From Candidatus Acidiferrales bacterium (GTDB taxonomy: Bacteria; Acidobacteriota; Terriglobia; Acidiferrales; UBA7541), in assembly GCA_049644285.1 (NCBI GenBank), contig JBARRP010000064.1, forward strand, positions 2,469-34,468: a DNA stretch of 32,000 bases, in the 5' to 3' direction. This document shows positions 11,468 to 31,929 of the stretch, piece by piece; within the stretch, counting starts at the first letter, position 1, and every line of letters starts with the position of its first letter. The notes under the pieces are model-generated. The model was given only the letters and a program-made list of their open reading frames with translations. It did no database searches and had not been told where the DNA came from. Both the position numbers and the translations under genes were made by a program.

Positions 11468-11670
11468 ATCCCGGAGCGTGATTCTCGCAATCTGACTTCA
11501 GTGCTATGCTCCGATCTGCCGCGGCCCGATCGGAGAGCGCATCGGCGCCGCGCTGCGGTGTCACGCTCCATTCCACCAGAACCCGCTCACGAAACCAAGC
11601 AGCCCTGAGATTTCTTCAGTTTGTTCTCTCGAATCGCAATAGCTTTGAGGGAGTCGAGGAAAAACTTCTT

Positions 11671-12015
11671 GTGAGTCATCCTCCTGACGCAGGTTCGCGC
11701 TTCGGCGAGCGCCGCTCTGTTCCGCGCTTTGCATTCATCGCTTCTCTCGAAATAGATGAGCCCCTCTCGAACACCCGTATTTCCGGCCGTGTCATCGAAA
11801 TCAGTCAAAAAGGTTGCTGCGCCGAAGTCGCAAACCCGCTCCCGGTCAATTCCTTCATTCAGCTGCGAATCAAACGCGATGAGGCTGCGTTCGAGACTTG
11901 GGCTCGAGTGATTTATGATCGCCAGGGTGTCGGGATGGGATTCCTCTTCATTCGCACCGCCGCCGACCAATCGAAAGTGCTAGACACCTGGCTCGTCGAA
12001 CTCAAGGGAAGCTGA
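11671..12015 (+). CDS. Single-domain PilZ protein (c-di-GMP receptor-like)
   Basis: GTG 11671 is preceded by GAGGAAAAA. It carries the PilZ signature RRSVPR (RxxxR) followed by GRVIEISQKG (the D/NxSxxG-like block). The longer 11506 start adds only Arg/Ser-rich sequence. Confidence 0.7.
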   Translation: MSHPPDAGSRFGERRSVPRFAFIASLEIDEPLSNTRISGRVIEISQKGCCAEVANPLPVNSFIQLRIKRDEAAFETWARVIYDRQGVGMGFLFIRTAADQSKVLDTWLVELKGS

Positions 12016-12641: not shown

Positions 12642-12854
12642 GGCGGGGTGGCCCAGGCTCGTTTCAATCCTTTCACTTGCGGCCGGGCACCCCAGGGTTC
12701 GCCCACTCTCTTTGGTCCTTGATCGCTTGACAGCGCAACCCGACCGGATGATTGCATTCGGACATTCATCCTCGGAGTCCATTTCCACCGAAGGGTGCTC
12801 CACTGTTCGATCTTGTTTTCCGAGGAGTGGGGGTTTTATTTCATCGGATCGATC
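12642..12854 (+). ncRNA. R1 repeat copy A: candidate structured small RNA ending in an intrinsic terminator
   Basis: About 90% identical to 13213-13424. Conserved hairpins are CCGGATG-ATTG-CATTCGG (12744-12761) and CCTCGG...CCGAAGG (12770-12794). The terminal hairpin CCACTGTTCG/CGAGGAGTGG (12800-12830) is followed by GGGTTTTATTTCAT. No coding signal was found. Confidence 0.35.
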
Positions 12855-13078
12855 CGCACCAGGCTGAGTCCGGATTGAGCCTAGAAAGAATAGCTGCTCC
12901 AGAGCCATTTCTTTGGATGATCGACGAGGCTTCACTTCACCGGGTTGAATTGCATGGAATGGAGTTCTCATTCCTTTTCTTCCGGCTCCAGATGTTGAAG
13001 TCGTTGAAGCGAGCCTGCCAGAAGCTTCGATACCGCGCCACGGGCGCGGGGGGCTGCCAGAAACACAGTTGCGAAACA

Positions 13079-13150
13079 GGCGGGCTGGCGCAGGCTCGTT
13101 TCAATCCTTTCAGTTGCGGCGAGCGGGCGGGTGGCGCACCCTTTTCGGTT
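13079..13150 (+). repeat. R1 repeat copy C: internally deleted copy retaining the 5' core and a short hairpin + T4
   Basis: GGCGGGCTGGCGCAGGCTCGTTTCAATCCTTTCAGTTGCGGC matches the 5' core of copies A and B. It is followed by GGGTG-GCG-CACCC TTTT (13129-13145). Its 3' flank (GATTAGATAA...GACTTGGTT) resembles the flank of copy B (GATCAGATAA...GACTTGGTT). Confidence 0.4.
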
Positions 13151-13212: not shown

Positions 13213-13424
13213 GGCGGGGCGGCCCAGGCTCGTTTCATCCTTTCACTTGCGCCCAGGCAGCCCAGGGTTCGACCACTCGTTTTCGACCTTGATCGCTTGA
13301 CGGCGCAACCCAACCGGATGATTGCATTCGGACATTCCTCCTCGGAGTTCATTTCCACCGAAGGGCGACCCACTCTTCGATCTTGTGTTCCGAAGAGTGG
13401 GGGGTTTATTTCATCGGATCGATC
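13213..13424 (+). ncRNA. R1 repeat copy B: candidate structured small RNA ending in an intrinsic terminator
   Basis: The best-preserved copy. It has an 11-bp perfect terminal stem CCCACTCTTCG/CGAAGAGTGGG (13369-13401) followed by GGGTTTATTTCAT, and the same internal hairpins as copy A (13314-13331 and downstream). GGGCGGG (13212-13218) is complementary to CCCGCCC (13427-13433) just past the element. Confidence 0.35.
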
Positions 13425-13671
13425 GGCCCGCCCTGATCAGATAATGGGGGGTCGCCTCCTTGCGACCGAGTAGACTTGGTTGACCGTAAGCGCCATGGAG
13501 ACACCCCAAGATCCACTCTCTGTTTCTTTCGTTTTCTTCGCTCCACCTCTCGCCTCCAACTCCCAATTCTCTACGACATACACCCCCTTGCAACTCCCCT
13601 GTCCCGTGTTACCGTGGCGTGCGGAGGTGCTGTGTCGTGGTGGCGGTTGCTCGCCGCGAACATGTCAACCC

Positions 13672-14433
13672 ATGACAGAAACCAACGAACATCGCGCAGC
13701 GCGTCTCGTCACAGGCTCTCCCTGTCGAACCAGTCCCAAAACGGGAAGAGACTCCTTCGCTTCACAAGCTCTAATCGCAACGAAGTTCAATTTTCTGGTG
13801 GCGGCCTCACCCCTTTATGCCGCAAGCGGCGCTAGGTTCCGTATTCCGAAGGCCAGCGCTGGCATCTCACTTCCTCCAGCCTCGCGCTTCGAGCATCCAG
13901 CTTCGAGAACTGTACTCGATACACCAAGCTACACCAAATGACAGTCGCAAAATCGCAACTCACTGAAAACAAGCACGATCGTATTTCGTGCCCGCTACAG
14001 GAACGCATGTTTCTGAAGAAGGAGCGCACGCTGAAGGCTGGACGCGCCCGCCTCCGCAGCAGTGCATTCTTGCCCGCATCTCTATTGCATCTCCAACTCC
14101 GGGCGGTAAGCCCTTTATGCTGAAGCGCTTCAATCTCGGCCATCTCTGCTCCCTCCGCGCTATCTGTGGTGAAGCGCGGCTCATTCTCTACCCGTTCTGC
14201 TCGCAACTCGAAATGACAGTCGCAAAACCGCAACTCGGACAAAACACGACTCAAATGCAATTTCTACCCGCAACAAAAACGCATGTTTCTGAACAAAGAG
14301 CGAAGGGCCTGTCCCGCGCACGGCGAGGGACGCGCCAGGCTCTTCGTCCTGAGGTCGCTGCGGTGACCGAAGGACCTCTCTGTTCCTTCAACTTTCGGCT
14401 TTCAACTGTGAACTGTCGACCTTCGTCTCGAAC
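13672..14433 (+). repeat. R2: three diverged tandem units of about 270 bp (starts 13672, 13938, 14213)
   Basis: Each unit begins with ATGACAG. Units 2 and 3 share AAATGACAGTCGCAAAAYCGCAACTC (13936-13961 / 14211-14236) and AACGCATGTTTCTGAA.AA.GAGCG (14002-14026 / 14278-14302). A 1-nt spacing difference between the blocks breaks any common reading frame. Unit 1 is much more diverged but shares CCCTTTATGC.G.AAGCG with unit 2. Confidence 0.6.
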
Positions 14434-15513
14434 ATGATCAACATTCACCAAGCCACCGAAAGCTTCGAGCGATGGAAGTCCTCACACATCCCCGTCGTAA
14501 AGAAGGACCTCGAGATCAAGCACTCCGCGATGGCGGCGGGCATCTTTCCTTTTTTCCGCGCTACGTTCTATCGCTGGCTTCAGCTTTGGGAAGACGTGTG
14601 CCCTGAGGAGGCTCGCGCTCCCAAAGTTCTCGCGGTCGGTGATCTGCACGTCGAAAACTTCGGCACCTGGAGGGATTTGGAAGGCCGCCTGATCTGGGGC
14701 GTCAACGATTTCGATGAAGCGTATCGCATGCCCTACACCATCGATCTTGTGCGCCTCGCGACCAGCGTGCGTCTCGCCATGGAAGAAGAGCATCTCTCGT
14801 TGAAATCTCGAAGCGGCTGCGACTCAATTCTGGAAGGGTATTGCGAAGCGCTCGAGACGGGCTGTCGGCCCTTCGTGCTCGGCGAAAACAACAAGTGGCT
14901 GCGTCGCATTGCTCTGAGCCGGCTGCGCGATCCGGTTCGCTTCTGGGGAAGAATGGAAGCCCTGCCGGCTTATACCGGCAAGATTCCCGATGACGTTCGC
15001 CGGCTCCTCGAAGACGATTTGCCCGAGCCGGAGCTTCCGTATATCCGCAAGCGGCGCGTTGCAGGACTCGGCAGCCTCGGCCATCTGCGCGTCGTGGCCT
15101 TAGCGAAATGGCGTGGAGCCTGGATTGCCCGTGAAATCAAAGCGCTCGCTCCTTCCGCCTGCGTCTGGGCCGGCGGCGATCGCAAGAACAGCAAAATCCA
15201 CTACCAGGAAATCATCGGCGCCGCCGCCCGCGTTCCCGATCCGTTCCTTCGCATCACGGAAGGCTATCTCCTTCGGCGACTCGCGCCAGACTGCTCGCGC
15301 ATTTTGCTCGCATCGCTTCCAGAAGACCGCGACGAAACGCGGCTGGTTCGAGCCATGGGCTTCGAGACCGCCAACATTCACTTCGGCAGCCCCAAATCGT
15401 TTCGCGCCGTAATTCGAGATCTGGAAAGGCGTCCCGATGGCTGGCTTCACCGGGCTGCCAAGAGGATGGCTAAAGCTACGCGTCGCGACTGGAAGCAGTG
15501 GTGCGATGGGTAG
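14434..15513 (+). CDS. DUF2252 family protein (kinase-like GDxHxxNFG motif)
   Basis: 359 aa with FFRATFYRW and VGDLHVENFGTWRDLEGRLIWGVNDFDEA, the hallmark DUF2252 block. Confidence 0.75.
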   Translation: MINIHQATESFERWKSSHIPVVKKDLEIKHSAMAAGIFPFFRATFYRWLQLWEDVCPEEARAPKVLAVGDLHVENFGTWRDLEGRLIWGVNDFDEAYRMPYTIDLVRLATSVRLAMEEEHLSLKSRSGCDSILEGYCEALETGCRPFVLGENNKWLRRIALSRLRDPVRFWGRMEALPAYTGKIPDDVRRLLEDDLPEPELPYIRKRRVAGLGSLGHLRVVALAKWRGAWIAREIKALAPSACVWAGGDRKNSKIHYQEIIGAAARVPDPFLRITEGYLLRRLAPDCSRILLASLPEDRDETRLVRAMGFETANIHFGSPKSFRAVIRDLERRPDGWLHRAAKRMAKATRRDWKQWCDG

Positions 15514-15622
15514 CGCTGCTCGCGATCGGGAATCCGGCATTCCGGAATCCGGCTTTACGCCGCCACACCCCCGGTGTAGCATGCTGGCTCCTCTGCCGGC
15601 TCAGGCGGTCCCTGGCTTTGCT

Positions 15623-17113
15623 ATGGCTTCCGCAGCGCACGCACCGCAAACCCGCAAACACAAACAAGCCGGACTGGCTCACTGGATGGCGCGAGTGCTG
15701 AAGGAATGTCATCGTGTGGCGCAGGATTTCGACGCCGACACCGTGCACGACCTCCGCGTGGCCCTGCGCCGCTGCCGCACGATATCCGATGAATTTCAAA
15801 ATCTGGATCCAGACCCCGCTTGGCGCAAGATGAAGAAAGCGTCGAAGAAACTTTTCCGAACGCTGGGCGCCTTGCGCGATAACCAGGTGATGCAGGAATG
15901 GGTGAAGAAGCTGAGCGGGGAAGACGACGCGTTGCGTCAGAAGCTCCTCGATTCACTCGCCGCAGAAGAACAGCGAGCAAGGTCGGACGTCGAGCGGGCG
16001 CTCGACCATTTCGATCAAAAGGCCTGGCGGAAGTGGTCGCGCATCCTGCCGGAGCACACCCGCAAAGTGCCCCGCGAAGGACTGGCGTTCCAGCATCTGG
16101 CGCTGAAGCGTTGGAACGATGCCCACGAGCTCCATCGCCGCGCCCTCCGCACCCGGAGTGGAGTAGCCTGGCACCGGCTGCGCATCGGGCTGAAGCAGTT
16201 CCGCTACACCGTCGAAAACTTTCTCCCCAAGCGCTACGACAAGTGGGGCGAAGGACTGAAACGCTTCCAGGATTTGCTGGGAGAAGTCCACGACCTCGAT
16301 GTTCTTTGGGCGGGCGTGCGCAAGGCGAGTGCGGGCGGAGACGCCTCGGTCCGGGCTCGCTGGAAAGAGGCGATCGACAACGAGCGCCGCACCCGCCTCG
16401 CGGAATACACCTCGCGAACACGCGGTCCGGATTCGCTCTGGCTGGTGTGGCGCGCCGGCTTGCCGGAGGGAAAGCGCGTGGAAGCAGCCGCGATCGCCAA
16501 GCTCGCTGCGTTTGCTTCTTTTCGTGATCCAGACGTAGCTCACTCGCAGCGAGTCCGGGCTCTCGCGCTCGAGCTTTTTTCCGGATTCCAGAAGGCGGGC
16601 TTGAACAGCCTGTTCCGGGAAGCGAGAGAGAGACGCATTCTCGATTGCGCCGCCCTGTTGCACGACGTTGGCCGCTCGAAAAGAAGTTCAGGCCACCATA
16701 AACTTTCCTACCGGATCATTCGCGATCTTCCCGCGCCCCTCGGGTGGACCGGCGAAGACATGCTCTGGACGGCTTTGGTGGCTCGCTACCATCGCGGCGC
16801 CGAGCCGCGCGGCACCCACCAGGGCTTTGGCGCTCTTTCCCCGGTGGAGCAGCAAAGAATCGCGTGGCTGGCGGCAGTTCTCAGGCTCGCCGATAGCCTC
16901 GATGGCGAGCACAACGGAAGGGTGTTGCATGTGAAGGTCGAAACCACCCGCGAGGCGCTGCTGATCCGCGCTCAGGGTTACAACGAAGAGATGGCTCTCA
17001 CCGCCGAAGTCGCGGAAAAGAAGCACCTGCTCGAAACGCTCTGCGGCAAGCCCGTCATTCTTCGCCCCGACGAAATCCAACCCGAAGCCGCCTCTGCTTC
17101 GCTCGCGTCCTGA
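15623..17113 (+). CDS. CHAD domain protein fused to a C-terminal HD domain (Ppx/GppA C-terminal-like)
   Basis: CHAD blocks: VHDLRVALRRCRTISDEF, LRDNQVMQEW, WHRLRIGLKQFRYTVENF, LGEVHDLDVL. The C-terminal HD region is LLHDVGRSKRSSGHHKLSYRIIRDL...ARYHRG. The start was chosen as ATG 15623 (alternative ATG 15581). The 15437 start would overlap DUF2252 by 77 nt. Confidence 0.75.
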   Translation: MASAAHAPQTRKHKQAGLAHWMARVLKECHRVAQDFDADTVHDLRVALRRCRTISDEFQNLDPDPAWRKMKKASKKLFRTLGALRDNQVMQEWVKKLSGEDDALRQKLLDSLAAEEQRARSDVERALDHFDQKAWRKWSRILPEHTRKVPREGLAFQHLALKRWNDAHELHRRALRTRSGVAWHRLRIGLKQFRYTVENFLPKRYDKWGEGLKRFQDLLGEVHDLDVLWAGVRKASAGGDASVRARWKEAIDNERRTRLAEYTSRTRGPDSLWLVWRAGLPEGKRVEAAAIAKLAAFASFRDPDVAHSQRVRALALELFSGFQKAGLNSLFREARERRILDCAALLHDVGRSKRSSGHHKLSYRIIRDLPAPLGWTGEDMLWTALVARYHRGAEPRGTHQGFGALSPVEQQRIAWLAAVLRLADSLDGEHNGRVLHVKVETTREALLIRAQGYNEEMALTAEVAEKKHLLETLCGKPVILRPDEIQPEAASASLAS

Positions 17114-17608
17114 CTATGCAAGCCCGCGCATTACTTTCGGCGCCAACAGCCAAAGGAGCGTTCCCTTCGACGCGCTGGCCGATTCCAACTCGAAGGAGGC
17201 CACGCCTGCCTTCTTCAGCGCCGTAAAGACGTCGCGCGCGCCCGCCAAACAGGCAATCAACTGATCCATGTGCGGGGCATGGCCGAAGCACATCACTTCT
17301 TTTGCCCTCACGTGGGCCAATTCCTTCAAGAATTCTGCGGGGTTTGCTCCTGGTTTCAAGTGTTCGCTGTTTCGGATTCTTTCGCGCGGGAATCCGAACA
17401 CCTCGCAGGCGATTTCGGCGGTTTGCGCCGCGCGCAGGTAGGGCGAGGTGATCATCACATCCGGTTTTGGGCCGAGCTCGCGAAGACCGAGCATCACCTC
17501 GCGCGCCTTCTCGATCCCCTTGCGTGTCAGGGGACGTTCCGGTTCCGGAGGCGCGTGGGGATCATTGCGGTTCACCGCAATTCCGTGACGCACGATGTAG
17601 AGGATCAT
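17114..17608 (-). CDS. sixA: Phosphohistidine phosphatase SixA (histidine phosphatase superfamily)
   Basis: 164 aa with MILYIVRHGIA (RHG catalytic motif), RPLTRKG, ITSPYLRAAQTAE and FGHAPH, the canonical SixA pattern. Confidence 0.8.
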   Translation of the reverse strand: MILYIVRHGIAVNRNDPHAPPEPERPLTRKGIEKAREVMLGLRELGPKPDVMITSPYLRAAQTAEIACEVFGFPRERIRNSEHLKPGANPAEFLKELAHVRAKEVMCFGHAPHMDQLIACLAGARDVFTALKKAGVASFELESASASKGTLLWLLAPKVMRGLA

Positions 17609-17611
17609 GGA

Positions 17612-19171
17612 CTAAGCAACCTTGCTCCTGGATTGAAGTCGTTTGAAAACGGCCTCCAGTTGGAATTCCCGCTCGAACATCGCCGCCTTGCGTACCACGC
17701 CGGCCAAGTCGAGGCGTGTTCCATTTTGCGTGTGGATTCGAAAGAGAGCCGCCGCCTTGTCCACATCGACGTCCGCTCGCAAAACTCCCTGGCGATGATC
17801 GGATTCCAGCTTCTCGGCAATGCGGAGGATGGCAGTGAGCTGGCGGAGCTGCCGGCGTCGAGTGCTATCGAGGGTGGTGTAGGGCTTGTGACCCACTTGC
17901 GGCTCCGACTTCGAATTATGGTAACGCACGAGACAGGCTACCATGTCACGCCGCCAGCCCCGCAAGCCGGGGATCTCCGCGTTGCGGACCAAGTAGTCGC
18001 CATGCCGATGATGCGCCTTGTGGCTGACGAAATGACCCACGTCATGCAAGAGCGACCCCAGCTCGAGCACCAAGCGGAGATCGGGCCCCATCCGGTGAAT
18101 CGGACGCAACTGGTCGAAAAGCGAGAGTGCCAGTGCGCTCACCTGTTCGGCATGTTTCGAATCATAATCCAGGCGACGCGCGAACCACTTTACGCCCGCG
18201 CGCAGAAGCTCGGCACGCTTCTTTTCTTCGTCCGAAGCCCAAGTTGGGGAATACTGCGCGGCAACCAGCTCGAGCAAGATTCCTTCTCTGACCCCGACCG
18301 CGGGCACAACCAGGCTGCGCAGATTCAGCCATGCTCCGAGAGTATTGAGCACTAGCGCGGCGATCCCCATGACCTCGGCGCGATCCCGGCGCACGCGAAA
18401 GGCGCTCATTCGCCGGGGAACATCGAGTGGAAGAATTTGCCAGGTGCGGTCCCGCAGCAGCCGAAGGTTGATTGTAGGGATGCCCTTCATGCCCGGGCCG
18501 GGGGCGATCGTCGCAAGCGCTTCGGCGTTTCCTCCGCAGGCTACCGCGACCGCGCCGGACAGGTTTGGGGGCGAAGACAAGGCGCTGCGGAGAAGAGCCA
18601 GGACGTGAAGCCGGAGCTTTTCTGCCGCCTCCTCATCGATTGGTCCGCTCAGCCCGTAGGTTTCCATCAGCCGAACAGTGCCGAGCGGCAGCGCGATGCG
18701 CCGCTCGACGATTCCGCCGCGGAGAAAGTTCAGCTCGAGGCTGCCTCCGCCTAGGTCGAAAATGAGCCGGGGCGAAATCACTCCGCCAAGGGCGCTCTGC
18801 ACCGCGTTCGTGACCAGCCGCGCTTCGTCTTCCCCGCTGACTATCTCGAGCTGGATCCCGGACTTCCGGCGAATTCGGTCAATCAAAGCTTGGCGGTTGC
18901 GGGCCTCGCGCGCGGCGCTGGTGGCGACGGCCCGATAGACGGTGACGTGGTAGTGGTCCATGACGCGACGAAAATGGCGAAAGGCCCGCGCAGCGCGCGC
19001 GATGGTCTGATTCGAAATCAGGCGACGGGTGAAGGCCTGGTGGCCCAAACGCACCGCGGCGCGTTCGTTCTCGAGTCCCTCGAGGTGATCGGGCGAAGTG
19101 GCGCGGGCAATGACGAGGCGGAGCGCGTTCGAACCGGCGTCAATCGCGGCGAGATGGACGGGCGCGGCCAA
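17612..19171 (-). CDS. ppx: Ppx/GppA family exopolyphosphatase / pppGpp phosphohydrolase with C-terminal HD domain
   Basis: 519 aa with LAAIDAGSNALRLVIA, FDLGGGSLEL (ASKHA fold motifs) and LLHDVGHFVSHKAHHRHGDYLV (HD domain). Confidence 0.85.
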   Translation of the reverse strand: MAAPVHLAAIDAGSNALRLVIARATSPDHLEGLENERAAVRLGHQAFTRRLISNQTIARAARAFRHFRRVMDHYHVTVYRAVATSAAREARNRQALIDRIRRKSGIQLEIVSGEDEARLVTNAVQSALGGVISPRLIFDLGGGSLELNFLRGGIVERRIALPLGTVRLMETYGLSGPIDEEAAEKLRLHVLALLRSALSSPPNLSGAVAVACGGNAEALATIAPGPGMKGIPTINLRLLRDRTWQILPLDVPRRMSAFRVRRDRAEVMGIAALVLNTLGAWLNLRSLVVPAVGVREGILLELVAAQYSPTWASDEEKKRAELLRAGVKWFARRLDYDSKHAEQVSALALSLFDQLRPIHRMGPDLRLVLELGSLLHDVGHFVSHKAHHRHGDYLVRNAEIPGLRGWRRDMVACLVRYHNSKSEPQVGHKPYTTLDSTRRRQLRQLTAILRIAEKLESDHRQGVLRADVDVDKAAALFRIHTQNGTRLDLAGVVRKAAMFEREFQLEAVFKRLQSRSKVA

Positions 19172-19173
19172 AT

Positions 19174-19989
19174 CTATCGCCAGAGGTGCGCCAGGGCATG
19201 CGAAGGTTCATAGTGAGTGACGCGGATTCCCAGATGCGCCGCAATCTTCTTGCGAAGCTCGCGATTCACCGCGGAGACGCTCCCTTCGCCATCGAGCTCC
19301 ATGAAGCCGTGACGCCGCGAAAGATACTCGAACTCCTTCTTGATGAGCGATTGATATCGTATAAAGGATTGAAAAAGGTCGTTTGAAAGAGACATGTCGC
19401 GGCCCGATTCCCAGTAGCTGATGGTGTGGGATTTCTTGAACTCGCGGTCGAATGCTACCTCGGGCTTCACATTGAGCCAGAACGTCAAATCCGGCTTCAG
19501 AGCCATTTCATAAATTCCGTGCAAATAATCGCGGCCAATGCCGCGGACGGCCGCCCGGGCGATGAGCGTGTAAATATAACGGTCCGCGAGAACGATGAGC
19601 CCGGAACGCAAGGCGGGCAAAATGCGACGCTCGAGCTGATCGAAAAAATCGGTGCCATACATGAGCGCCAGCGTCAGACGCGTCACCGAATTCTCGGCGA
19701 GCAGCGCATCGATGTCGTCGGCCACCAGGAACGACCGCCGCAAGCCCATGGTCTGAACGGCGAAGCCTTCGGACTCGAGCCACTCGGTGAGCAGCGCGAT
19801 TTGAGTGGAGCGGCCCGATCCATCGGTGCCCTCAAGGACGATGAGAGTGCCGCTGAGCTCTTCGACTTTGACGCCGGGCAGCGGCGTTCCGTAAAAGCGC
19901 GATGCAGGCGCGCTCCCCGATTTTGTCTTCCGCGAAGAATTGCCGTTGGGCGAGAGTGAAAGCGCCGAATTCTTTTCGGATCGTTTCAT
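19174..19989 (-). CDS. Thymidylate-kinase-fold P-loop protein, paralog 2, Walker A lysine replaced by arginine
   Basis: IVLEGTDGSGRSTQ (canonical Tmk has GxGK[ST]T), plus LADRYIYT (the DRY block) and a lid-like YWESGRDMS. It has a 50-aa basic/Ser-rich N-terminal extension. A 4-nt overlap (19986-19989) links it to the upstream paralog. Confidence 0.7.
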   Translation of the reverse strand: MKRSEKNSALSLSPNGNSSRKTKSGSAPASRFYGTPLPGVKVEELSGTLIVLEGTDGSGRSTQIALLTEWLESEGFAVQTMGLRRSFLVADDIDALLAENSVTRLTLALMYGTDFFDQLERRILPALRSGLIVLADRYIYTLIARAAVRGIGRDYLHGIYEMALKPDLTFWLNVKPEVAFDREFKKSHTISYWESGRDMSLSNDLFQSFIRYQSLIKKEFEYLSRRHGFMELDGEGSVSAVNRELRKKIAAHLGIRVTHYEPSHALAHLWR

Positions 19990-20738
19990 GATTTCTTGGG
20001 AGCAAATTGGGTGAGGTTGATGCGCTCGCCGACGATTTCGCGCATCTGCTTTTGCAGCCTGTTGACCGGGACCGTGCCGTCCATCAGAACAAAATTGTCG
20101 GTCCCGACCATTTGATCATAATAATTCAGAATTCTTTCCTGGAAGATTCGGAAGCTTTCGGCGCGGTCAAGCGAAATGCCCAGGTCCATGCCCGCTTCGT
20201 AGTATTTCAATTTGGGGCGGCCGGCAACGATGCGGCTGACGGCCACGTCGAGCGGGGCGCGAAAATAAAAGGTGATGTCCGGAATCGGGGCGAAGCGATA
20301 CAAGTTGCGAAGCCAGTGCGGCGAGCAGCCACGGGCCACATCGCGCGCGAAAGCCGTGTAAACATAGCGGTCGGCCAGGACCAGATAGCCTCCGTGAAGG
20401 AGGGGCAAGATCTGCCGCTCGCAGCGGTCGGCAAAGTCGGCGGCATGAAGCAGGGAAAAGGTTATGGGAGTGAGGAGCCGCCGCTGTTTGCCCCGGCGCG
20501 TCGCCGATCTCACGAGCGGCGAGGAATTCCACTCGGTGAAGTGGATGCGGTAGCCGCCGATTTCAAGCCACCGCTTCAACAAATAGAGCTGGGTGCTTTT
20601 GCCCGAGCCGTCGATTCCCTCGACGACGATGAGCGCGCCGGGATAGTCGCGCTTGGGAGGGCGAGCTTTTTCAGCGGGCCGCTCGGCGATTTGGACCGTC
20701 GTTTCCGACACGGGTTCCGTCTCTTCGGCTGGTCGCAA
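19986..20738 (-). CDS. Thymidylate-kinase-fold P-loop kinase, paralog 1 (canonical Walker A, non-canonical NMP site)
   Basis: IVVEGIDGSGKSTQLYLLKRWL, HAADFADRCERQILPLLHGGYLVLADRYVYT and YYEAGMDLG. TEWNSSPLV takes the place of the TREPGGT dTMP-binding block. TTG start at 20738. Confidence 0.7.
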   Translation of the reverse strand: MRPAEETEPVSETTVQIAERPAEKARPPKRDYPGALIVVEGIDGSGKSTQLYLLKRWLEIGGYRIHFTEWNSSPLVRSATRRGKQRRLLTPITFSLLHAADFADRCERQILPLLHGGYLVLADRYVYTAFARDVARGCSPHWLRNLYRFAPIPDITFYFRAPLDVAVSRIVAGRPKLKYYEAGMDLGISLDRAESFRIFQERILNYYDQMVGTDNFVLMDGTVPVNRLQKQMREIVGERINLTQFAPKKS

Positions 20739-20864
20739 TCCCTTATAATACCCCGCGTTTCGAGCCCGGATGTAAATTTTCTGTTACAAGGGATCGGGTT
20801 TTTCAACGGAGGCAAGTTATACCAGAAGCGTCACTTACGCAACGCCTGAGAGGATGAAACGCCG

Positions 20865-21674
20865 ATGAAATTCCGGGACAAGCTGATGGCGCCACACGGG
20901 GAAAAGGTGAAGATCGAGAAGTGCGATCCCGAAGACGCGCTGGGATTCGAGAAAAATGCCAAGACGAAAAAGGTGCTGGAGAAGAACCTGAAGCGCCTCG
21001 GCGAGCTCCAGTATCTGCTCTATGCCGAAAGGAAGCACGCTCTCCTCGTCGTTTTGCAGGCGATGGATGCGGGCGGCAAGGACGGAACGATCCGCCACGT
21101 CATGTCCGGAGTGAGTCCGCTAGGCTGCAAGGTGACCGCGTTCAAGGCGCCTACCCCGGAAGAATTGAGCCATGATTTTTTGTGGCGGGTTCATAGAGCC
21201 GTGCCGGAGAAGGGCGACATCGGCATCTTCAACCGCTCTCATTACGAGGACGTCCTCATCGTGAGGGTGCACAAGCTGGCGCCGGAATCGGCCTGGTCCA
21301 AACGGTATGACGAAATCAACGCGTTCGAATCCCTTTTGGCGAACGATCGGGTTACGATCCTGAAGTTTTTCCTTCATATCAGCAAAGACGAACAGAAGAA
21401 GCGTTTCGAGGAGCGGATCGCAGATCGCAACAAGCGTTGGAAGGTTTCGCCGGCGGATTTTCACGAGCGCGAATACTGGGACGATTATATGCGGGCGTAC
21501 GAAGACGCGCTGACGCGCTGCAACATGAAGGCAGCGCCGTGGTTCATCATTCCCGCGAACAAAAAATGGTTCCGCAATCTGGCGGTGGCTCAGATCATCG
21601 TGGAGACGCTTGAAGATCTCCAAATGAAGTTCCCCCAGCCGGAAATCGACGTGACGAAAATCAAATGGAAGTGA
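20865..21674 (+). CDS. ppk2: Polyphosphate kinase 2 family protein (single-domain PPK2)
   Basis: 269 aa with LLVVLQAMDAGGKDGTIRHV (PPK2 Walker A), FNRSHYEDVL, and KRWKVSPADFHEREYWDDYM. GAGAGGA SD lies upstream of ATG 20865. Confidence 0.85.
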   Translation: MKFRDKLMAPHGEKVKIEKCDPEDALGFEKNAKTKKVLEKNLKRLGELQYLLYAERKHALLVVLQAMDAGGKDGTIRHVMSGVSPLGCKVTAFKAPTPEELSHDFLWRVHRAVPEKGDIGIFNRSHYEDVLIVRVHKLAPESAWSKRYDEINAFESLLANDRVTILKFFLHISKDEQKKRFEERIADRNKRWKVSPADFHEREYWDDYMRAYEDALTRCNMKAAPWFIIPANKKWFRNLAVAQIIVETLEDLQMKFPQPEIDVTKIKWK

Positions 21675-21716
21675 CGGCCGAGCCAGGAGATCCACTCGCC
21701 TGCGGAGAAACGATGG

Positions 21717-21757
21717 TTGCCTTCTCTGGTAGGTCATGATATTATGACCATGGTCAT
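21717..21757 (+). promoter_or_regulatory. Promoter with overlapping palindromic operators for TA pair 1
   Basis: TTGCCT (21717-21722), a 17-nt spacer, then TATTAT (21740-21745). There is an inverted repeat GGTCAT-N6-ATGACC (21732-21749) and a perfect 14-bp palindrome ATGACCATGGTCAT (21744-21757). AAGGAGAGGAG SD then precedes ATG 21770. Confidence 0.6.
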
Positions 21758-21769
21758 AAGGAGAGGAGC

Positions 21770-22000
21770 ATGAAGAAAGTGCCTGCCGGAGCCTTCAAAG
21801 CGCGCTGCCTGACCATCATGAAAGAGGTGCAGTCGACCGGGGAACCAGTCGTCGTCACCAAGCGGGGAAAGCCAGTCGTCAAGGTGATGCCGATCGCGGC
21901 AGAAACGAATAGCCTCTTCGGATTCATGAAGGGAAGAGTCACCATCGTTGGGGATATTGAGTCTCCCATTCCTGTCGAGTGGGAGGTCATGAAAAAGTGA
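21770..22000 (+). CDS. Type II antitoxin, Phd/YefM family
   Basis: 76 aa, MKKVPAGAFKARCLTIMKEVQSTGEPVVVTKRGKPVVKVMPI. This is the typical Phd/YefM N-terminal fold signature. Confidence 0.8.
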   Translation: MKKVPAGAFKARCLTIMKEVQSTGEPVVVTKRGKPVVKVMPIAAETNSLFGFMKGRVTIVGDIESPIPVEWEVMKK

Positions 22001-22386
22001 TCCTTCTCGACACGCACGTCTTAGTCTGGGTCGCTGCTGAACCCGCAAAATTGTCTAGACCGGCTACCCGCGCCATCGCTCGAGCGGCGCGGGAAGGCGG
22101 AATCGCCATTTCGGCAATTACCTTGTGGGAGCTGGCGTGGCTGGCAACTCATGGCCGTCTGGAGCTCTTTGGAACAGTCGAAGGCTACGTCGAAGAAGTT
22201 TCTTCTCGAGTCGCAATCCGGCCTATTACTGTGAAAATCGCGGTCTTGGCGAACCAGCTTCCGCCAGACTATTCCGGCGATCCATGTGACCGCCTCATCG
22301 GCGCGACGGCACTTGCCGAGGGCATCGCTTTGGTAACGAAGGACGCGAGAATAAGAAGCTGCAAAAAGTTTGCCACGATCTGGTGA
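21997..22386 (+). CDS. vapC: PIN-domain toxin, VapC family
   Basis: VILLDTHVLVWV..., ITLWEL, DPCDRLIGATA and LVTKDARI give the four acidic PIN positions. GTG 21997 overlaps the antitoxin stop (GTGA); the ORF-track start 21979 is an alternative. Confidence 0.8.
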   Translation: MILLDTHVLVWVAAEPAKLSRPATRAIARAAREGGIAISAITLWELAWLATHGRLELFGTVEGYVEEVSSRVAIRPITVKIAVLANQLPPDYSGDPCDRLIGATALAEGIALVTKDARIRSCKKFATIW

Positions 22387-22405
22387 AGAACCGTATCACG
22401 TGGAT

Positions 22406-25290: not shown

Positions 25291-26943
25291 ATGATGAACA
25301 GCAAGCACCCGTGGCCTCTTCGCGCCCTGGCGATGGTCGCCGTGTTCTCGGTCGTCGTTTCAACGCCGGCGGGCGTTTGGGCGCAACATGCGCAGACAAA
25401 AAAAGAGCTGGCCAAGCTGGATCCGGAACTACCTACCGACAGTCCGATCAAGCACCTCGTCGTGATCTTCGATGAGAACATCTCCTTCGACCACTACTTC
25501 GGGACCTATCCACATGCGCAGAATCCGCCGGGCGAAACCGCCTTTCATGCGAACGCCAACACGCCCACAGTGAATAATCTGCTTTCCGCCGGACTTCTCG
25601 GCCACAATCCCAATTCCGTCAATCCATTCCGGCTCCCTCCCGCAGACGCGGTCACCTGCGACCAGGATCACAATTACGGTGACGAGCAGAAAGCCTTCGA
25701 TGCGGGCTTGATGGACAAATTTCCAGAGTCCACGGGCACCGGCAGCACCACGAGTTCCCCTTGTAACGACGTGGGAATGGGCACCGGGATCGTGATGGGC
25801 TACTACGACGGCAACACGGTAACGGCTATTTGGAACTACGCCCAATACTTCGCCATGAGCGACAATTCCTACAGCACGACCTTTGGTCCCTCCACGCCCG
25901 GCGCAATCAACCTGATTTCGGGAAACACATTTGGAGCAACGCTCGAGCCGGCCGCGAACGGCAGCAAGAGCAATCCGCTCGGCAACATCGGCAACGACGT
26001 CGACACAGGAGCTGTCATCGGCGATCCGCGGCCCTTTTTCGACGATTGCGTTGCGACGATCCCGGGCCTCAGTTCGAAGGCGCGGATCATGATGAGCGGG
26101 AAGAATATCGGAGACCTGTTGAGTACCCAGGGCATCACTTGGGGCTGGTTCCAGGGCGGCTTCCGCCCCACGTCCACCAATGCGAAGAAGCAGGCGGTCT
26201 GCGGATCCACGCACGTCGGCCTGGCTGGGACAATCGTTGACTACGTGCCCCACCATGAGCCGTTTCAGTACTACCAGCTAACAAGCAACCCGCATCACCT
26301 TCCGCCCACTTCGGTGAGCGCCATCGGAGCGAGTGACCAAGCGAATCACCAATATGACCTGGTGGATTTCTTTGCGGCTCTAAAGGCCGGCAATCTGCCT
26401 GCGGTGAGCTTCCTGAAGGCGGCGGCCTATCAGGACGGCCACCCGGGGAATTCCGATCCGCTGGACGAGCAGGTCTGGCTGGTCAGCACGATCACCAAGC
26501 TCGAGAACTCCCAGGAATGGAAGGAAACAGCGGTGGTCATCCTGTATGACGATTCGGACGGATGGTACGACCACGCCATGAGCCCGATCATCGATCAGGC
26601 CGACGTCTCCGACGATAACTTGAAAGCGCCGGGAAGCTGCGGCGTTGCCAAGCCGATCGATTTACAGGGCGACCTTCAAAACGGCCGCTGTGGCTACGGT
26701 CCGCGCCAGCCCCTGCTGCTGATCTCCCCATTCGCAAAGCAGAACTTTGTCGACCACTCCATTACTGACCAGTCTTCGGTCACCCGCTTTATTGAGGACA
26801 ACTGGGGCCTGCCGAGGCTTGGCAACGGTTCGACAGATGCTCGGGCAGGTTCGTTGCTGAACCTGTTCGACTTTAGTCAGGAAGGAACGCACAAGGTCTT
26901 CCTCGATCCCTCCACCGGACAAGTAGTCAAGACAGAGGAATAG
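25291..26943 (+). CDS. Phosphoesterase family protein (AcpA-type acid phosphatase / non-haemolytic phospholipase C family), secreted
   Basis: It has a signal peptide. IKHLVVIFDENISFDHYFGTYP is the hallmark N-terminal block of the PF04185-type phosphoesterases. AAGGAGAGAG SD is present. Confidence 0.8.
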   Translation: MMNSKHPWPLRALAMVAVFSVVVSTPAGVWAQHAQTKKELAKLDPELPTDSPIKHLVVIFDENISFDHYFGTYPHAQNPPGETAFHANANTPTVNNLLSAGLLGHNPNSVNPFRLPPADAVTCDQDHNYGDEQKAFDAGLMDKFPESTGTGSTTSSPCNDVGMGTGIVMGYYDGNTVTAIWNYAQYFAMSDNSYSTTFGPSTPGAINLISGNTFGATLEPAANGSKSNPLGNIGNDVDTGAVIGDPRPFFDDCVATIPGLSSKARIMMSGKNIGDLLSTQGITWGWFQGGFRPTSTNAKKQAVCGSTHVGLAGTIVDYVPHHEPFQYYQLTSNPHHLPPTSVSAIGASDQANHQYDLVDFFAALKAGNLPAVSFLKAAAYQDGHPGNSDPLDEQVWLVSTITKLENSQEWKETAVVILYDDSDGWYDHAMSPIIDQADVSDDNLKAPGSCGVAKPIDLQGDLQNGRCGYGPRQPLLLISPFAKQNFVDHSITDQSSVTRFIEDNWGLPRLGNGSTDARAGSLLNLFDFSQEGTHKVFLDPSTGQVVKTEE

Positions 26944-30354: not shown

Positions 30355-30459
30355 CTTTCTGTTGTGCGACAATGCCTAGTTCCGTAGGCGCGGTCCGAAC
30401 GGGTTGGAGTCTTCGATCTCGATGCCACCCTACGAATCTTGGTGGTGAAAGGTTTCAGC

Positions 30460-31929
30460 ATGCCTCTGAGGACCCAAATGAAGCGATCTCTTTCTGAGGA
30501 ACTGATTCGCGAAATCGCGGCGCCGCTCAAAGAAGCGCACAAAGCATTTGCGCTGCGTTATCCCGGTCCAAACAATCAGCGCCAGCCGGTGCACACCGTT
30601 TACGGCGGCGCGCACCTGTTTCACGCCGACACCGCACGGCGTCTTGGCGACAAGGCACTGCTGGCTCTCGAGGAGTTTGCCCCGAACTTTGCCATCTTCG
30701 CGAAAGCGATCGGCTTGCCGGGCTCACAGGATTTGCCAGACTCGCCAGAAGAAGCGGAGCGCCTGGAAAAATACATCGAATCCGATCCGGAAACGTTTCG
30801 GAAGGAAAGCAAATCCGCCTGGCTGGCGCTGACAGTCTACGGCCGGGTGCGGGAAAAACTGCGGCGCGAACCGGTGGAGGACTTCCGAATCGATTTCGAA
30901 GACGGCTACGGCAACCGTCCCGACGCCGAAGAGGATGGCCATGCCGCCGCGGCTGCTGCTCAAGTTGCCGAGGGAATGCACGCGGGCTCGCTACCTCCGT
31001 TCATCGGCATGCGGATCAAGCCTTTCAACGAAGAGCTGCGCGAGAGGAGCATTCGCACTCTCGATATCTTCCTGACGGAGTTGGCGTCGCGCACCCACGA
31101 GAAGCTACCGAAGAATTTCTATGTCACGCTTCCGAAGGTGACCCTGCCGGATGAGGTCAGCGTGCTGGCCGATCTGCTCTCGCGACTCGAGCCCGAGCTC
31201 GATCAAAAACCAGGGACGCTGCGGATGGAGCTGATGATCGAGACACCGCAATCGATTTTGAACGAGCGGGGCGAATCGAACTTGCCTGCGCTGGTGGCGG
31301 CGGCGCGCGGGCGGTGCGTGGCCGCGCACTTCGGCACCTATGACTACACCGCCGGCTGTAACATCACGGCGGAGCATCAAACCATGACTCATCCGGCGTG
31401 CGATTTCGCGCGCGAGATGATGCAGGTGGCGCTGGCCGGGACCGGCGTGTGGCTGTCGGATGGAGCGACCAACATTCTGCCGGTGGCGCCGCACCGGGCG
31501 GCGAAGGGTGAAGCGCCGCTCACCACCTCGCAATTTGCGGAGAATTGCGCCGCGGTACACCGCGCCTGGAAGTTGCAGTTCGAGCATATCCGGCATTCGC
31601 TCGTCAACGCCTTCTATCAGGGCTGGGACCTGCACCCGGCGCAACTTCCCACACGGTACGCCGCGGTCTACTCCTTCTTCCTCGAGGGGCTGGAGGCTGC
31701 GTCCGAGCGTCTGAAGAACTTCATTGACAAAGCGGCGCAGGCCACTCTCGTCGGCGAAGTCTTCGACGATGCGGCGACCGGGCAGGGACTGCTGAACTAT
31801 TTTCTGCGCGCCATCAATTGCGGCGCGATCGCCGCGGAAGAGGCGCTGCCCCTCACCGGCCTCACCCTCGAAGAGCTTCGCTCCGGCTCATTCGTGAAGA
31901 TTCTCGACCACCGCTCAAAGCAAACGTAA
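30460..31929 (+). CDS. HpcH/HpaI aldolase / citrate-lyase-beta-like TIM-barrel family protein (function unknown)
   Basis: About 489 aa with RQPVHTVYGGAHLF and FRIDFEDGYG (a DxED-type metal/substrate motif like citrate-lyase beta/malyl-CoA lyase), and LMIETPQSIL. The family assignment comes from motif memory only. Confidence 0.5.
   Translation: MPLRTQMKRSLSEELIREIAAPLKEAHKAFALRYPGPNNQRQPVHTVYGGAHLFHADTARRLGDKALLALEEFAPNFAIFAKAIGLPGSQDLPDSPEEAERLEKYIESDPETFRKESKSAWLALTVYGRVREKLRREPVEDFRIDFEDGYGNRPDAEEDGHAAAAAAQVAEGMHAGSLPPFIGMRIKPFNEELRERSIRTLDIFLTELASRTHEKLPKNFYVTLPKVTLPDEVSVLADLLSRLEPELDQKPGTLRMELMIETPQSILNERGESNLPALVAAARGRCVAAHFGTYDYTAGCNITAEHQTMTHPACDFAREMMQVALAGTGVWLSDGATNILPVAPHRAAKGEAPLTTSQFAENCAAVHRAWKLQFEHIRHSLVNAFYQGWDLHPAQLPTRYAAVYSFFLEGLEAASERLKNFIDKAAQATLVGEVFDDAATGQGLLNYFLRAINCGAIAAEEALPLTGLTLEELRSGSFVKILDHRSKQT

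Follow-up and report, generated by a model that had tools for sequence, protein, structure and literature searches.

A pair of thymidylate kinase-like genes in an acidobacterial polyphosphate locus predicted to encode a bacterial PPK3 system

Why should two genes of the thymidylate kinase (Tmk) type lie directly beside one another in an operon among genes of polyphosphate (polyP) metabolism? The question is raised by a 32,000-nucleotide stretch of DNA from a Candidatus Acidiferrales bacterium (contig JBARRP010000064.1, positions 2,469 to 34,468; hereafter the window, in whose own numbering coordinates are given), where the two genes, here called TmkA and TmkB, are followed on the minus strand by genes for a Ppx/GppA phosphatase and a SixA-type histidine phosphatase. 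An earlier note on this DNA had seen the four genes as part of a polyP module in which the Tmk-like pair, SixA and DUF2252 were unusual members. Sequence comparison indicates that the minus-strand operon (20738-17114) very probably encodes a bacterial polyphosphate kinase 3 (PPK3) system. The window locus is an acidobacterial copy of this known system, which is not new, since PPK3 was published in 2024 and 2026; what is added here is modest, namely a lysine-to-arginine hallmark of the partner subunit as well as fusions involving DUF2252 and HD domains.

PPK3 was described from Sulfolobus acidocaldarius, in which two adjacent Tmk paralogs form a heteromeric polyP:ADP phosphotransferase (Hofmann et al., J Biol Chem 2026, PMC12995831; 2024 preprint by Hofmann et al., bioRxiv 10.1101/2024.08.28.610084). 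Its subunits, regarded as exapted Tmk paralogs, are encoded in the operon saci_2017-2021 with the order sixA-ppx-cPPK3-rPPK3-CHAD. Saci_2019 (cPPK3) is the catalytic subunit, while Saci_2020 (rPPK3) is inactive but stimulates Saci_2019's PPK activity approximately 10-fold via oligomerisation, the assembly being alpha2beta2 (PMC12995831). Neither protein has deoxythymidine monophosphate (dTMP) kinase activity. The enzyme favours the formation of ATP from polyP and ADP, with ADP as the preferred acceptor and reduced activity with GDP, and the inactivity of rPPK3 was ascribed to the replaced arginine of its DRX motif; conservation of a positively charged cleft for polyP is a feature of cPPK3 and not of rPPK3 (PMC12995831). 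SixA is likewise a recognised genomic companion of polyP kinases, its substrate being left open (PMC12995831). The earlier note's view that neither the Tmk-fold pair nor SixA has an established role in polyP metabolism is therefore outdated; its suggestion of a "polyP-driven nucleotide phosphorylation" was a good guess for the window pair, judging by the orthologous Sulfolobus pair, for which this activity was shown biochemically (PMC12995831). For the note's other example, a phosphohistidine relay, the analysis yielded neither supporting nor contrary evidence.

The identity of the pair was assessed against solved structures and against the S. acidocaldarius locus (L085), the genes of which were translated for this comparison. 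TmkA matched STK_15430, the cPPK3 homolog of S. tokodaii (PDB 2plr/5h70), with E=6e-61 and 209 bits, whereas canonical Tmks reached at most 52.8 bits (1e-13), which places TmkA approximately 150 bits closer to the cPPK3 structure than to any real Tmk. Similarly, TmkB matched 2plr with E=6e-40, compared to approximately 1e-12 for canonical Tmks. Identity amounts to 48% between TmkA and Saci_2019 and to 32% between TmkB and Saci_2020, and the fold of both window proteins is already fixed by their 48% and 37% identity to the solved structure. Two profiles, one made from 76 A-type and the other from 72 B-type sequences, separated the Sulfolobus subunits in the same manner, Saci_2019 scoring 284 bits with the A profile against 226 with the B profile, and Saci_2020 145 bits with the B profile against 98 with the A profile. 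In a neighbour-joining tree, the 74 sequences of the A clade, Saci_2019 and TmkA among them, were monophyletic, with a B clade of 67 sequences including TmkB as its sister, both apart from the canonical Tmks.

The dTMP-binding residues of canonical Tmk have been replaced in both proteins. In the joint alignment, the column of the thymine-stacking Phe of canonical Tmk holds His in 72 of 74 A-type and Tyr in 69 of 69 B-type sequences, and the column of the Arg that contacts the dTMP phosphate holds Phe in 73 of 74 and 64 of 69, respectively. The alignments of the window proteins to the structures display the same Phe and Arg replacements, so that the dTMP site is gone in both subunits. With the dTMP kinase model TIGR00041, TmkA scored 80.1 bits and TmkB 79.5 bits, both below the cutoff of 83.25. 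The two proteins have the same fold as canonical Tmk and also its P-loop, DRY motif and lid arginine, but differ from it in the lost dTMP-binding residues, the sub-cutoff score, the separate clade and the pairing of their genes. No further Tmk gene was found within the 32-kb window, the only part of the genome covered.

The genes around the pair are arranged as follows, with domain labels taken from Pfam and NCBIfam profile matches.
14434-15513, plus strand: DUF2252 protein, protein-kinase-like (PF10009, E=1.5e-30; motifs GDLHVEN and DFD)
15437-17113 as called, plus strand: CHAD domain joined to a Ppx-GppA domain-III/HD region (PF05235, E=7.7e-31; PF21447, E=5.9e-17)
17114-17608, minus strand: SixA-type histidine phosphatase of 164 amino acids (PF00300, E=3.4e-9; TIGR00249, 70.9 bits)
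17612-19171, minus strand: Ppx/GppA with a C-terminal domain III/HD, 519 amino acids (PF02541, E=4.8e-39; PF21447, E=6.8e-27)
19174-19989, minus strand: TmkB, predicted partner PPK3 subunit of the rPPK3 clade, 271 amino acids (Thymidylate_kin, E~1e-19)
19986-20738, minus strand: TmkA, predicted catalytic-type PPK3 subunit and cPPK3 ortholog, 250 amino acids (Thymidylate_kin, E~1e-19)
20739-20864, no strand: divergent intergenic region of 126 bp between the PPK3 operon and PPK2
20865-21674, plus strand: PPK2, single-domain and class III-like (PF03976, E=3e-70; TIGR03709, 391 bits at a cutoff of 247)
25291-26943: AcpA/PLC-type phosphoesterase with a signal-peptide-like N-terminus (PF04185, E=8e-79), 3.6 kb past PPK2

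The seven open reading frames (ORFs) from DUF2252 to PPK2, with the domain labels and positions given in the earlier note, were borne out by the ORF list and by the Pfam and NCBIfam matches, and the junctions read straight off the sequence are those it had claimed. TmkA and TmkB overlap by 4 nucleotides (ATGA), which implies that TmkB is translationally coupled to TmkA; a gap of 2 nucleotides separates TmkB from Ppx, the TTG start of which was mechanically called, and one of 3 nucleotides separates Ppx from SixA. The convergent SixA and CHAD-HD genes abut at their stop codons with a gap of 0 nucleotides. At its 5' end, the CHAD-HD ORF is over-extended, the real start probably lying at one of the in-frame Met codons at 15581, 15623 and 15686. 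Given these downstream codons, and as homology to the ortholog in the relative L086 (493 amino acids) begins at window position 15686, the gene probably does not overlap DUF2252. Scanning of 14000-22400 gave 3 promoter-like sites against 1.7 in shuffled sequence and 13 terminator-like sites against 10, neither above expectation. No match to the sigma-70 consensus was found inside 20739-20864, within which the promoters of both the PPK3 operon and PPK2 presumably lie, a placement by inference only. The window contains no Rfam match, and no transfer RNA (tRNA) was found in it. The top protein matches came from metagenome-assembled genomes (MAGs) labelled 'Candidatus Acidoferrales/Acidoferrum' (Acidobacteriota).

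The earlier note had proposed a gene-neighbourhood analysis as a check on joint action, and its outcome supports the joint reading of the operon. At least 80 loci came from a scan in which each GTDB species was represented by a single genome, the phyla sampled being Acidobacteriota, Verrucomicrobiota, Chloroflexota, Nitrospirota, Planctomycetota, Bacteroidota, Armatimonadota, Sumerlaeota and Binatia, together with Nitrososphaerales, Thermoplasmata, MGII and Methanoliparum. Among the matches listed, 72 of 76 loci, which belong to many phyla of both Bacteria and Archaea, had a B-type gene directly after the A-type gene. An exhaustive search of representatives at 50% identity returned 352 clusters at E<=1e-30, and PPK3 is more widely spread than the 'few bacteria' mentioned in the abstract of the original description (PMC12995831). 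Flanks of 5 kb or more on either side were available for 43 loci. Of these, 65% had Ppx no further than 5 kb from the PPK3 pair, 49% CHAD, 44% SixA and 9% PPK2, while DUF2252 was present in the window only. The order A-B-Ppx-SixA with a convergent CHAD gene was held across the acidobacterial relatives. Because the core recurs in different phyla, the arrangement goes far beyond what chance would give, and the proposal that Tmk, Tmk, Ppx and SixA act together, with CHAD, in polyP metabolism is upheld by this conserved neighbourhood and by the Sulfolobus PPK3 operon.

The limits of the unit are shown by L086, the TmkA of which is 90% identical to that of the window. In this locus, the genes from CHAD-HD to PPK2 (window 15686-21641) lie together in the reverse orientation, as one inverted block, judged against co-linear genes for an M28 peptidase and an aminotransferase that served as anchors. 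No inverted repeats were found at the block boundaries; only pairs of 18-30 nucleotides with 73-94% complementarity occur, elsewhere. The inversion and the conserved A-B pair together define a functional unit of six genes, from CHAD-HD to PPK2, with a universal core of two, which narrows the seven-gene module of the earlier note by leaving DUF2252 outside. PPK2 itself adjoins PPK3 only in close acidobacterial relatives among the loci listed (L001, L005, L007, L086 and L087), and PPK1, sought in all PPK3 loci, was encountered only as a fragment in L052. The AcpA-type phosphatase that the note had also pointed out is indeed present, 3.6 kb further on, but has no link to the polyP locus, AcpA being found in 0 of 87 PPK3-related loci.

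Several further features were observed around the PPK3 genes. Genes related to cyclic di-guanosine monophosphate (PilZ, GGDEF) flank the CHAD side in the window (11506-12015) and in L001 (14678-16473 and 20056-20394), which may be coincidence. Two loci of Planctomycetota/Brocadiia, L029 (4825-8055) and L060 (4912-7992), have ORFs of approximately 1000 amino acids directly upstream of the PPK3 genes; both match the Ppx profile and that of L029 also matches CHAD, these being longest-start calls whose true lengths may be shorter. P0121 from Alicyclobacillaceae (460 amino acids) is a single-chain fusion of two Tmk-type domains, presumably cPPK3 and rPPK3, and P0131, P0137 and P0149 (650-696 amino acids) are further fusions of this two-Tmk-domain kind. 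Some of them add a Ppx-GppA domain III/HD, the same HD type that is fused to CHAD in the window. Finally, P0213 (2575 amino acids) combines ART-PolyVal, an inorganic pyrophosphatase and a PPK3-like Tmk, a polyvalent-type protein typical of mobile elements and phages.

Several observations weigh against reading the operon as a PPK3 system. The nearest characterised enzyme is that of a thermoacidophilic archaeon, with 48% identity for the catalytic and 32% for the partner subunit, and none is bacterial. Moreover, Saci_2020 and one MGII sequence fell near the outgroup of the neighbour-joining tree, outside the B clade. This misplacement is possibly due to long-branch attraction, and Saci_2020 was assigned to B by its profile scores rather than by its position in the tree. 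PPK2 lies adjacent in the window, whereas most PPK3 genomes are stated to lack PPK1 and PPK2 (PMC12995831). Lastly, the published loss of the DRX arginine does not apply to TmkB, in which DRY is intact and it is the Walker-A Lys that is replaced, by Arg.

This last point concerns the partner subunit as a whole. TmkA has the P-loop EGIDGSGKSTQ and an intact DRY, while TmkB has EGTDGSGRSTQ, with the Walker-A Lys changed to Arg, and keeps DRY (LADRYIYT). In the joint alignment, all 74 A-type sequences have both the Walker-A Lys and DRY; among the B-type sequences, the DRX arginine is present in 69 of 69 and the Walker-A Arg in 67 of 69, a pattern that includes those sampled from Nitrososphaerales, Nitrosopumilales, Thermoplasmata and Methanoliparum. 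Saci_2020 is the outlier, as it keeps the Walker-A Lys, reads D-G-Y and lacks several of the invariant residues of B. Since the arginine is present throughout the B clade, the DRX loss belongs to the Sulfolobus protein rather than to the family in this sample. Judged from the alignment, the family-wide hallmark of the partner subunit is instead the Walker-A Lys-to-Arg change. With DRY intact and Arg at this position, the division of labour between the subunits may differ from that in Sulfolobus.

A possible refinement, compatible with the PPK3 reading though in itself rather unlikely, is that the partner is not a dead scaffold but offers a second ligand-binding site with a nearly complete active site, serving as an allosteric sensor of ATP/ADP or polyP, or as the site for one direction of the reaction. 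The conserved Walker-A Arg speaks for such a role, as does the almost invariant retention in B of D101, D104, R124 (of DRY), R132, R136, R169, E181, G183 and D185, of which R124, R132, E181 and G183 are lost in Saci_2020. The B subunit is also strongly constrained, with a median identity of 71% among close Acidobacteria and 41% across phyla; it evolves faster than A nonetheless (41% compared to 53%), which counts against the proposal. In P-loop nucleoside triphosphatases, moreover, a Walker-A Lys-to-Arg exchange normally abolishes phosphotransfer, and this too argues against a working second site. The same holds for the basic residues K84, R174, K178 and R233, (near-)invariant in A and variable in B, which may correspond to the polyP cleft described for cPPK3 only (PMC12995831).

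Less probable still is the proposal that all seven genes form one module in which DUF2252 is a functional member, for instance by phosphorylating or regulating PPK3 or a polyP-bound substrate. DUF2252 was found in 0 of the 87 PPK3-related loci, L086 included, and in the window it lies on the strand opposite the operon and outside the block inverted as a unit. Conversely, 80 relatives of the DUF2252 protein with 53-69% identity were sampled. The order of DUF2252 followed by CHAD, with SixA converging on them, was present only in L088, L090 and L091, the three closest informative relatives (62-69% identity). Among 34 DUF2252 loci of at least 9 kb, from orthologs with 53-59% identity, 33 had no polyP gene nearby. 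None of the DUF2252 loci contained the ORFs that precede this gene in the window. Since the order is confined to the three closest relatives and nearly all the long loci lack a polyP gene, the synteny of DUF2252 appears to be inherited locally, which speaks against functional coupling.

The retained order in these three relatives can nevertheless be counted in favour of a functional link, and further points on the same side come from fusion proteins. A search of representatives yielded proteins of 1030-1276 amino acids that join an MFS transporter, a PPK3-A-like Tmk and a DUF2252/APH domain, P0254 among them, and a follow-up search gave 13 related clusters of 857-1256 amino acids, 12 of which have all three domains, P0403 being without the Tmk. 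One of the 13 is named as an Elusimicrobia MAG protein. In P0195, P0203, P0207 and P0229, the fused Tmk domain is 45-51% identical to TmkA over the matched stretch, with the P-loop EGLDGSGKST, and the alignment of the window DUF2252 to the DUF2252 parts of the fusions spans the catalytic region GDLHVEN...DFD, with E=1e-6 to 8e-9. The fusion gene of L168 (5390-9082) stands beside genes for Metallophos, a second MFS protein and CYTH, and that of L169 (8001-11648) beside PPK1. No description of the MFS-PPK3-like-DUF2252 architecture was found in the searched literature. In the Rosetta-stone sense, the fusions hint that DUF2252 domains are able to cooperate with kinases of the PPK3 type. Both lines of thought meet in a tentative joint reading, to which the analysis gives a rather low probability: the partner would be a conserved sensor or second site across most of the PPK3 family, and DUF2252 would be a module associated with polyP that has so far gone unrecognised, occurring in Elusimicrobia-type operons with PPK1 or CYTH as a fusion to PPK3-like domains and MFS transporters.

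A different possibility is raised by the Ppx/GppA gene, as sequence alone cannot separate Ppx from GppA: the operon could serve mainly the metabolism of guanosine penta- and tetraphosphate, (p)ppGpp, with Ppx/GppA as a pppGpp phosphatase and the kinases acting on guanine nucleotides. In its favour, the GppA model NF008260 matched with 120.7 bits, and the exopolyphosphatase-only model TIGR03706 stayed below its cutoff (212 bits compared to 307). TIGR03706 is still the best NCBIfam match, however, CHAD, PPK2 and PPK3 as neighbours each indicate polyP, and the Sulfolobus enzyme prefers ADP, with reduced activity on GDP (PMC12995831), which makes this reading highly improbable. A stringent-response GppA operon was accordingly rejected on the grounds of the polyP companions and the best match to the exopolyphosphatase model.

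The two remaining companions can be placed more closely. SixA has the RHG motif (IVRHGIA) and a downstream GH motif (FGHAPH); its TIGR00249 score of 70.9 bits is just under the cutoff of 74.5, its PF00300 match is above cutoff, and its counterpart in the Sulfolobus operon is saci_2017. PPK2 passed TIGR03709 (391 compared to 247) and remained below the cutoff of NF042973 (321 compared to 450). Its closest solved structures, 5lc9 (E=5e-89) and 5o6k (E=2.5e-88), are both deposited as polyphosphate:AMP phosphotransferase and are presumably the class III PPK2 enzymes of Meiothermus ruber and Deinococcus. This class III-like PPK2 is closely linked to PPK3, which points to separate tasks for the two polyP-dependent kinases.

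The weakest alternative, that TmkA and TmkB are ordinary duplicated thymidylate kinases that stand beside polyP genes by chance, has in its favour the Pfam Thymidylate_kin matches and the 'dTMP kinase' labels given to homologs by JGI and NCBI, and is hardly credible and was rejected in view of the lost dTMP-binding Phe and Arg, the TIGR00041 scores below cutoff, the better match to the cPPK3 structure by approximately 150 bits, the pairing conserved in 72 of 76 loci across phyla and the lack of dTMP kinase activity in the Sulfolobus orthologs (PMC12995831).

Beyond what is observed here, namely orthology, a lost dTMP site and a conserved gene pair in a conserved neighbourhood, the catalytic activity, stoichiometry and preferred direction of the predicted PPK3 are taken over by analogy from the archaeal enzyme. 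TmkA, as the catalytic subunit, and TmkB, as its obligate partner, would form a hetero-oligomer, alpha2beta2 as in Sulfolobus, in which TmkB would be needed for full activity of TmkA. The complex would reversibly move the terminal phosphate, polyP(n) + ADP <-> polyP(n-1) + ATP, running towards ATP formation when the ATP/ADP ratio is low. Going by family function, Ppx would trim the terminal phosphate of polyP to orthophosphate, CHAD-HD would bind or tether to the polyP granule, and the class III-like PPK2 would add a polyP-driven conversion of AMP to ADP and on to ATP, with SixA as a conserved companion in the locus. Taken together, the locus may act as a hub that turns stored polyP into nucleotides and phosphate.

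Compared to the Sulfolobus operon, the window has the same five gene families in one locus, with the catalytic gene directly followed by the partner gene and overlapping stop and start codons, a catalytic subunit with 48% identity, the dTMP site lost in both subunits and, as it appears, basic residues conserved in the catalytic subunit only. The gene order differs, being c-r-ppx-sixA with a convergent CHAD gene in the window and sixA-ppx-c-r-saci_2021 in Sulfolobus, where saci_2021 is a CHAD protein according to the original description (PMC12995831) although no Pfam match is on record for that ORF. In contrast to Saci_2020, with its Lys, its D-G-Y and its further losses, the partner in the window combines DRY with a Walker-A Arg. 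Furthermore, the window Ppx is a long form with domain III/HD (519 compared to 411 amino acids), CHAD carries a fused HD domain, a class III-like PPK2 lies next to the operon, and the host is a mesophilic acidobacterium rather than a thermoacidophilic archaeon. The two-domain class II PPK2 of P. aeruginosa (PA3455) is comparable in that it also combines inactive and active kinase-fold modules in an oligomeric polyP-dependent nucleotide kinase (PMC12995831), but it belongs to the PPK2 family and not to the Tmk superfamily, carries its modules fused in one chain and uses AMP as substrate. The likeness to the class III enzymes 5lc9 and 5o6k concerns the neighbouring gene at 20865-21674 only and not the Tmk-like pair.

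Elsewhere in the window, the approximately 2.4 kb between 12016 and 14433 contain no conserved ORF, Pfam or Rfam match or tRNA. Direct repeats of approximately 215 nucleotides, 90% identical, occupy 12642-12857 and 13213-13427, with a partial third copy at 13079-13120, and a second repeat pair is found at 13928-14026 and 14203-14302. The predicted folds are not notably stable (z = -0.7 and -1.7), and the core motif occurred in 0 of 169 fetched loci; the region may represent either a mobile element in decay or a family of intergenic repeats. At 30439-31929, a DUF6986 protein of 496 amino acids (E=1.7e-183) with a weak match to the malate-synthase TIM-barrel is encoded downstream of genes for a molybdopterin oxidoreductase and FdhD, unrelated to the PPK3 locus.

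The published explanation for the inactivity of the regulatory subunit does not generalise to the family, and the conserved Lys-to-Arg signature is a simple way of telling the PPK3 subunits apart. Thousands of metagenomic 'dTMP kinase' annotations are probably PPK3 subunits. The third polyphosphate kinase family is not mainly archaeal, being common in soil Acidobacteria and in many uncultured bacterial phyla, and these phyla are important for phosphorus cycling.

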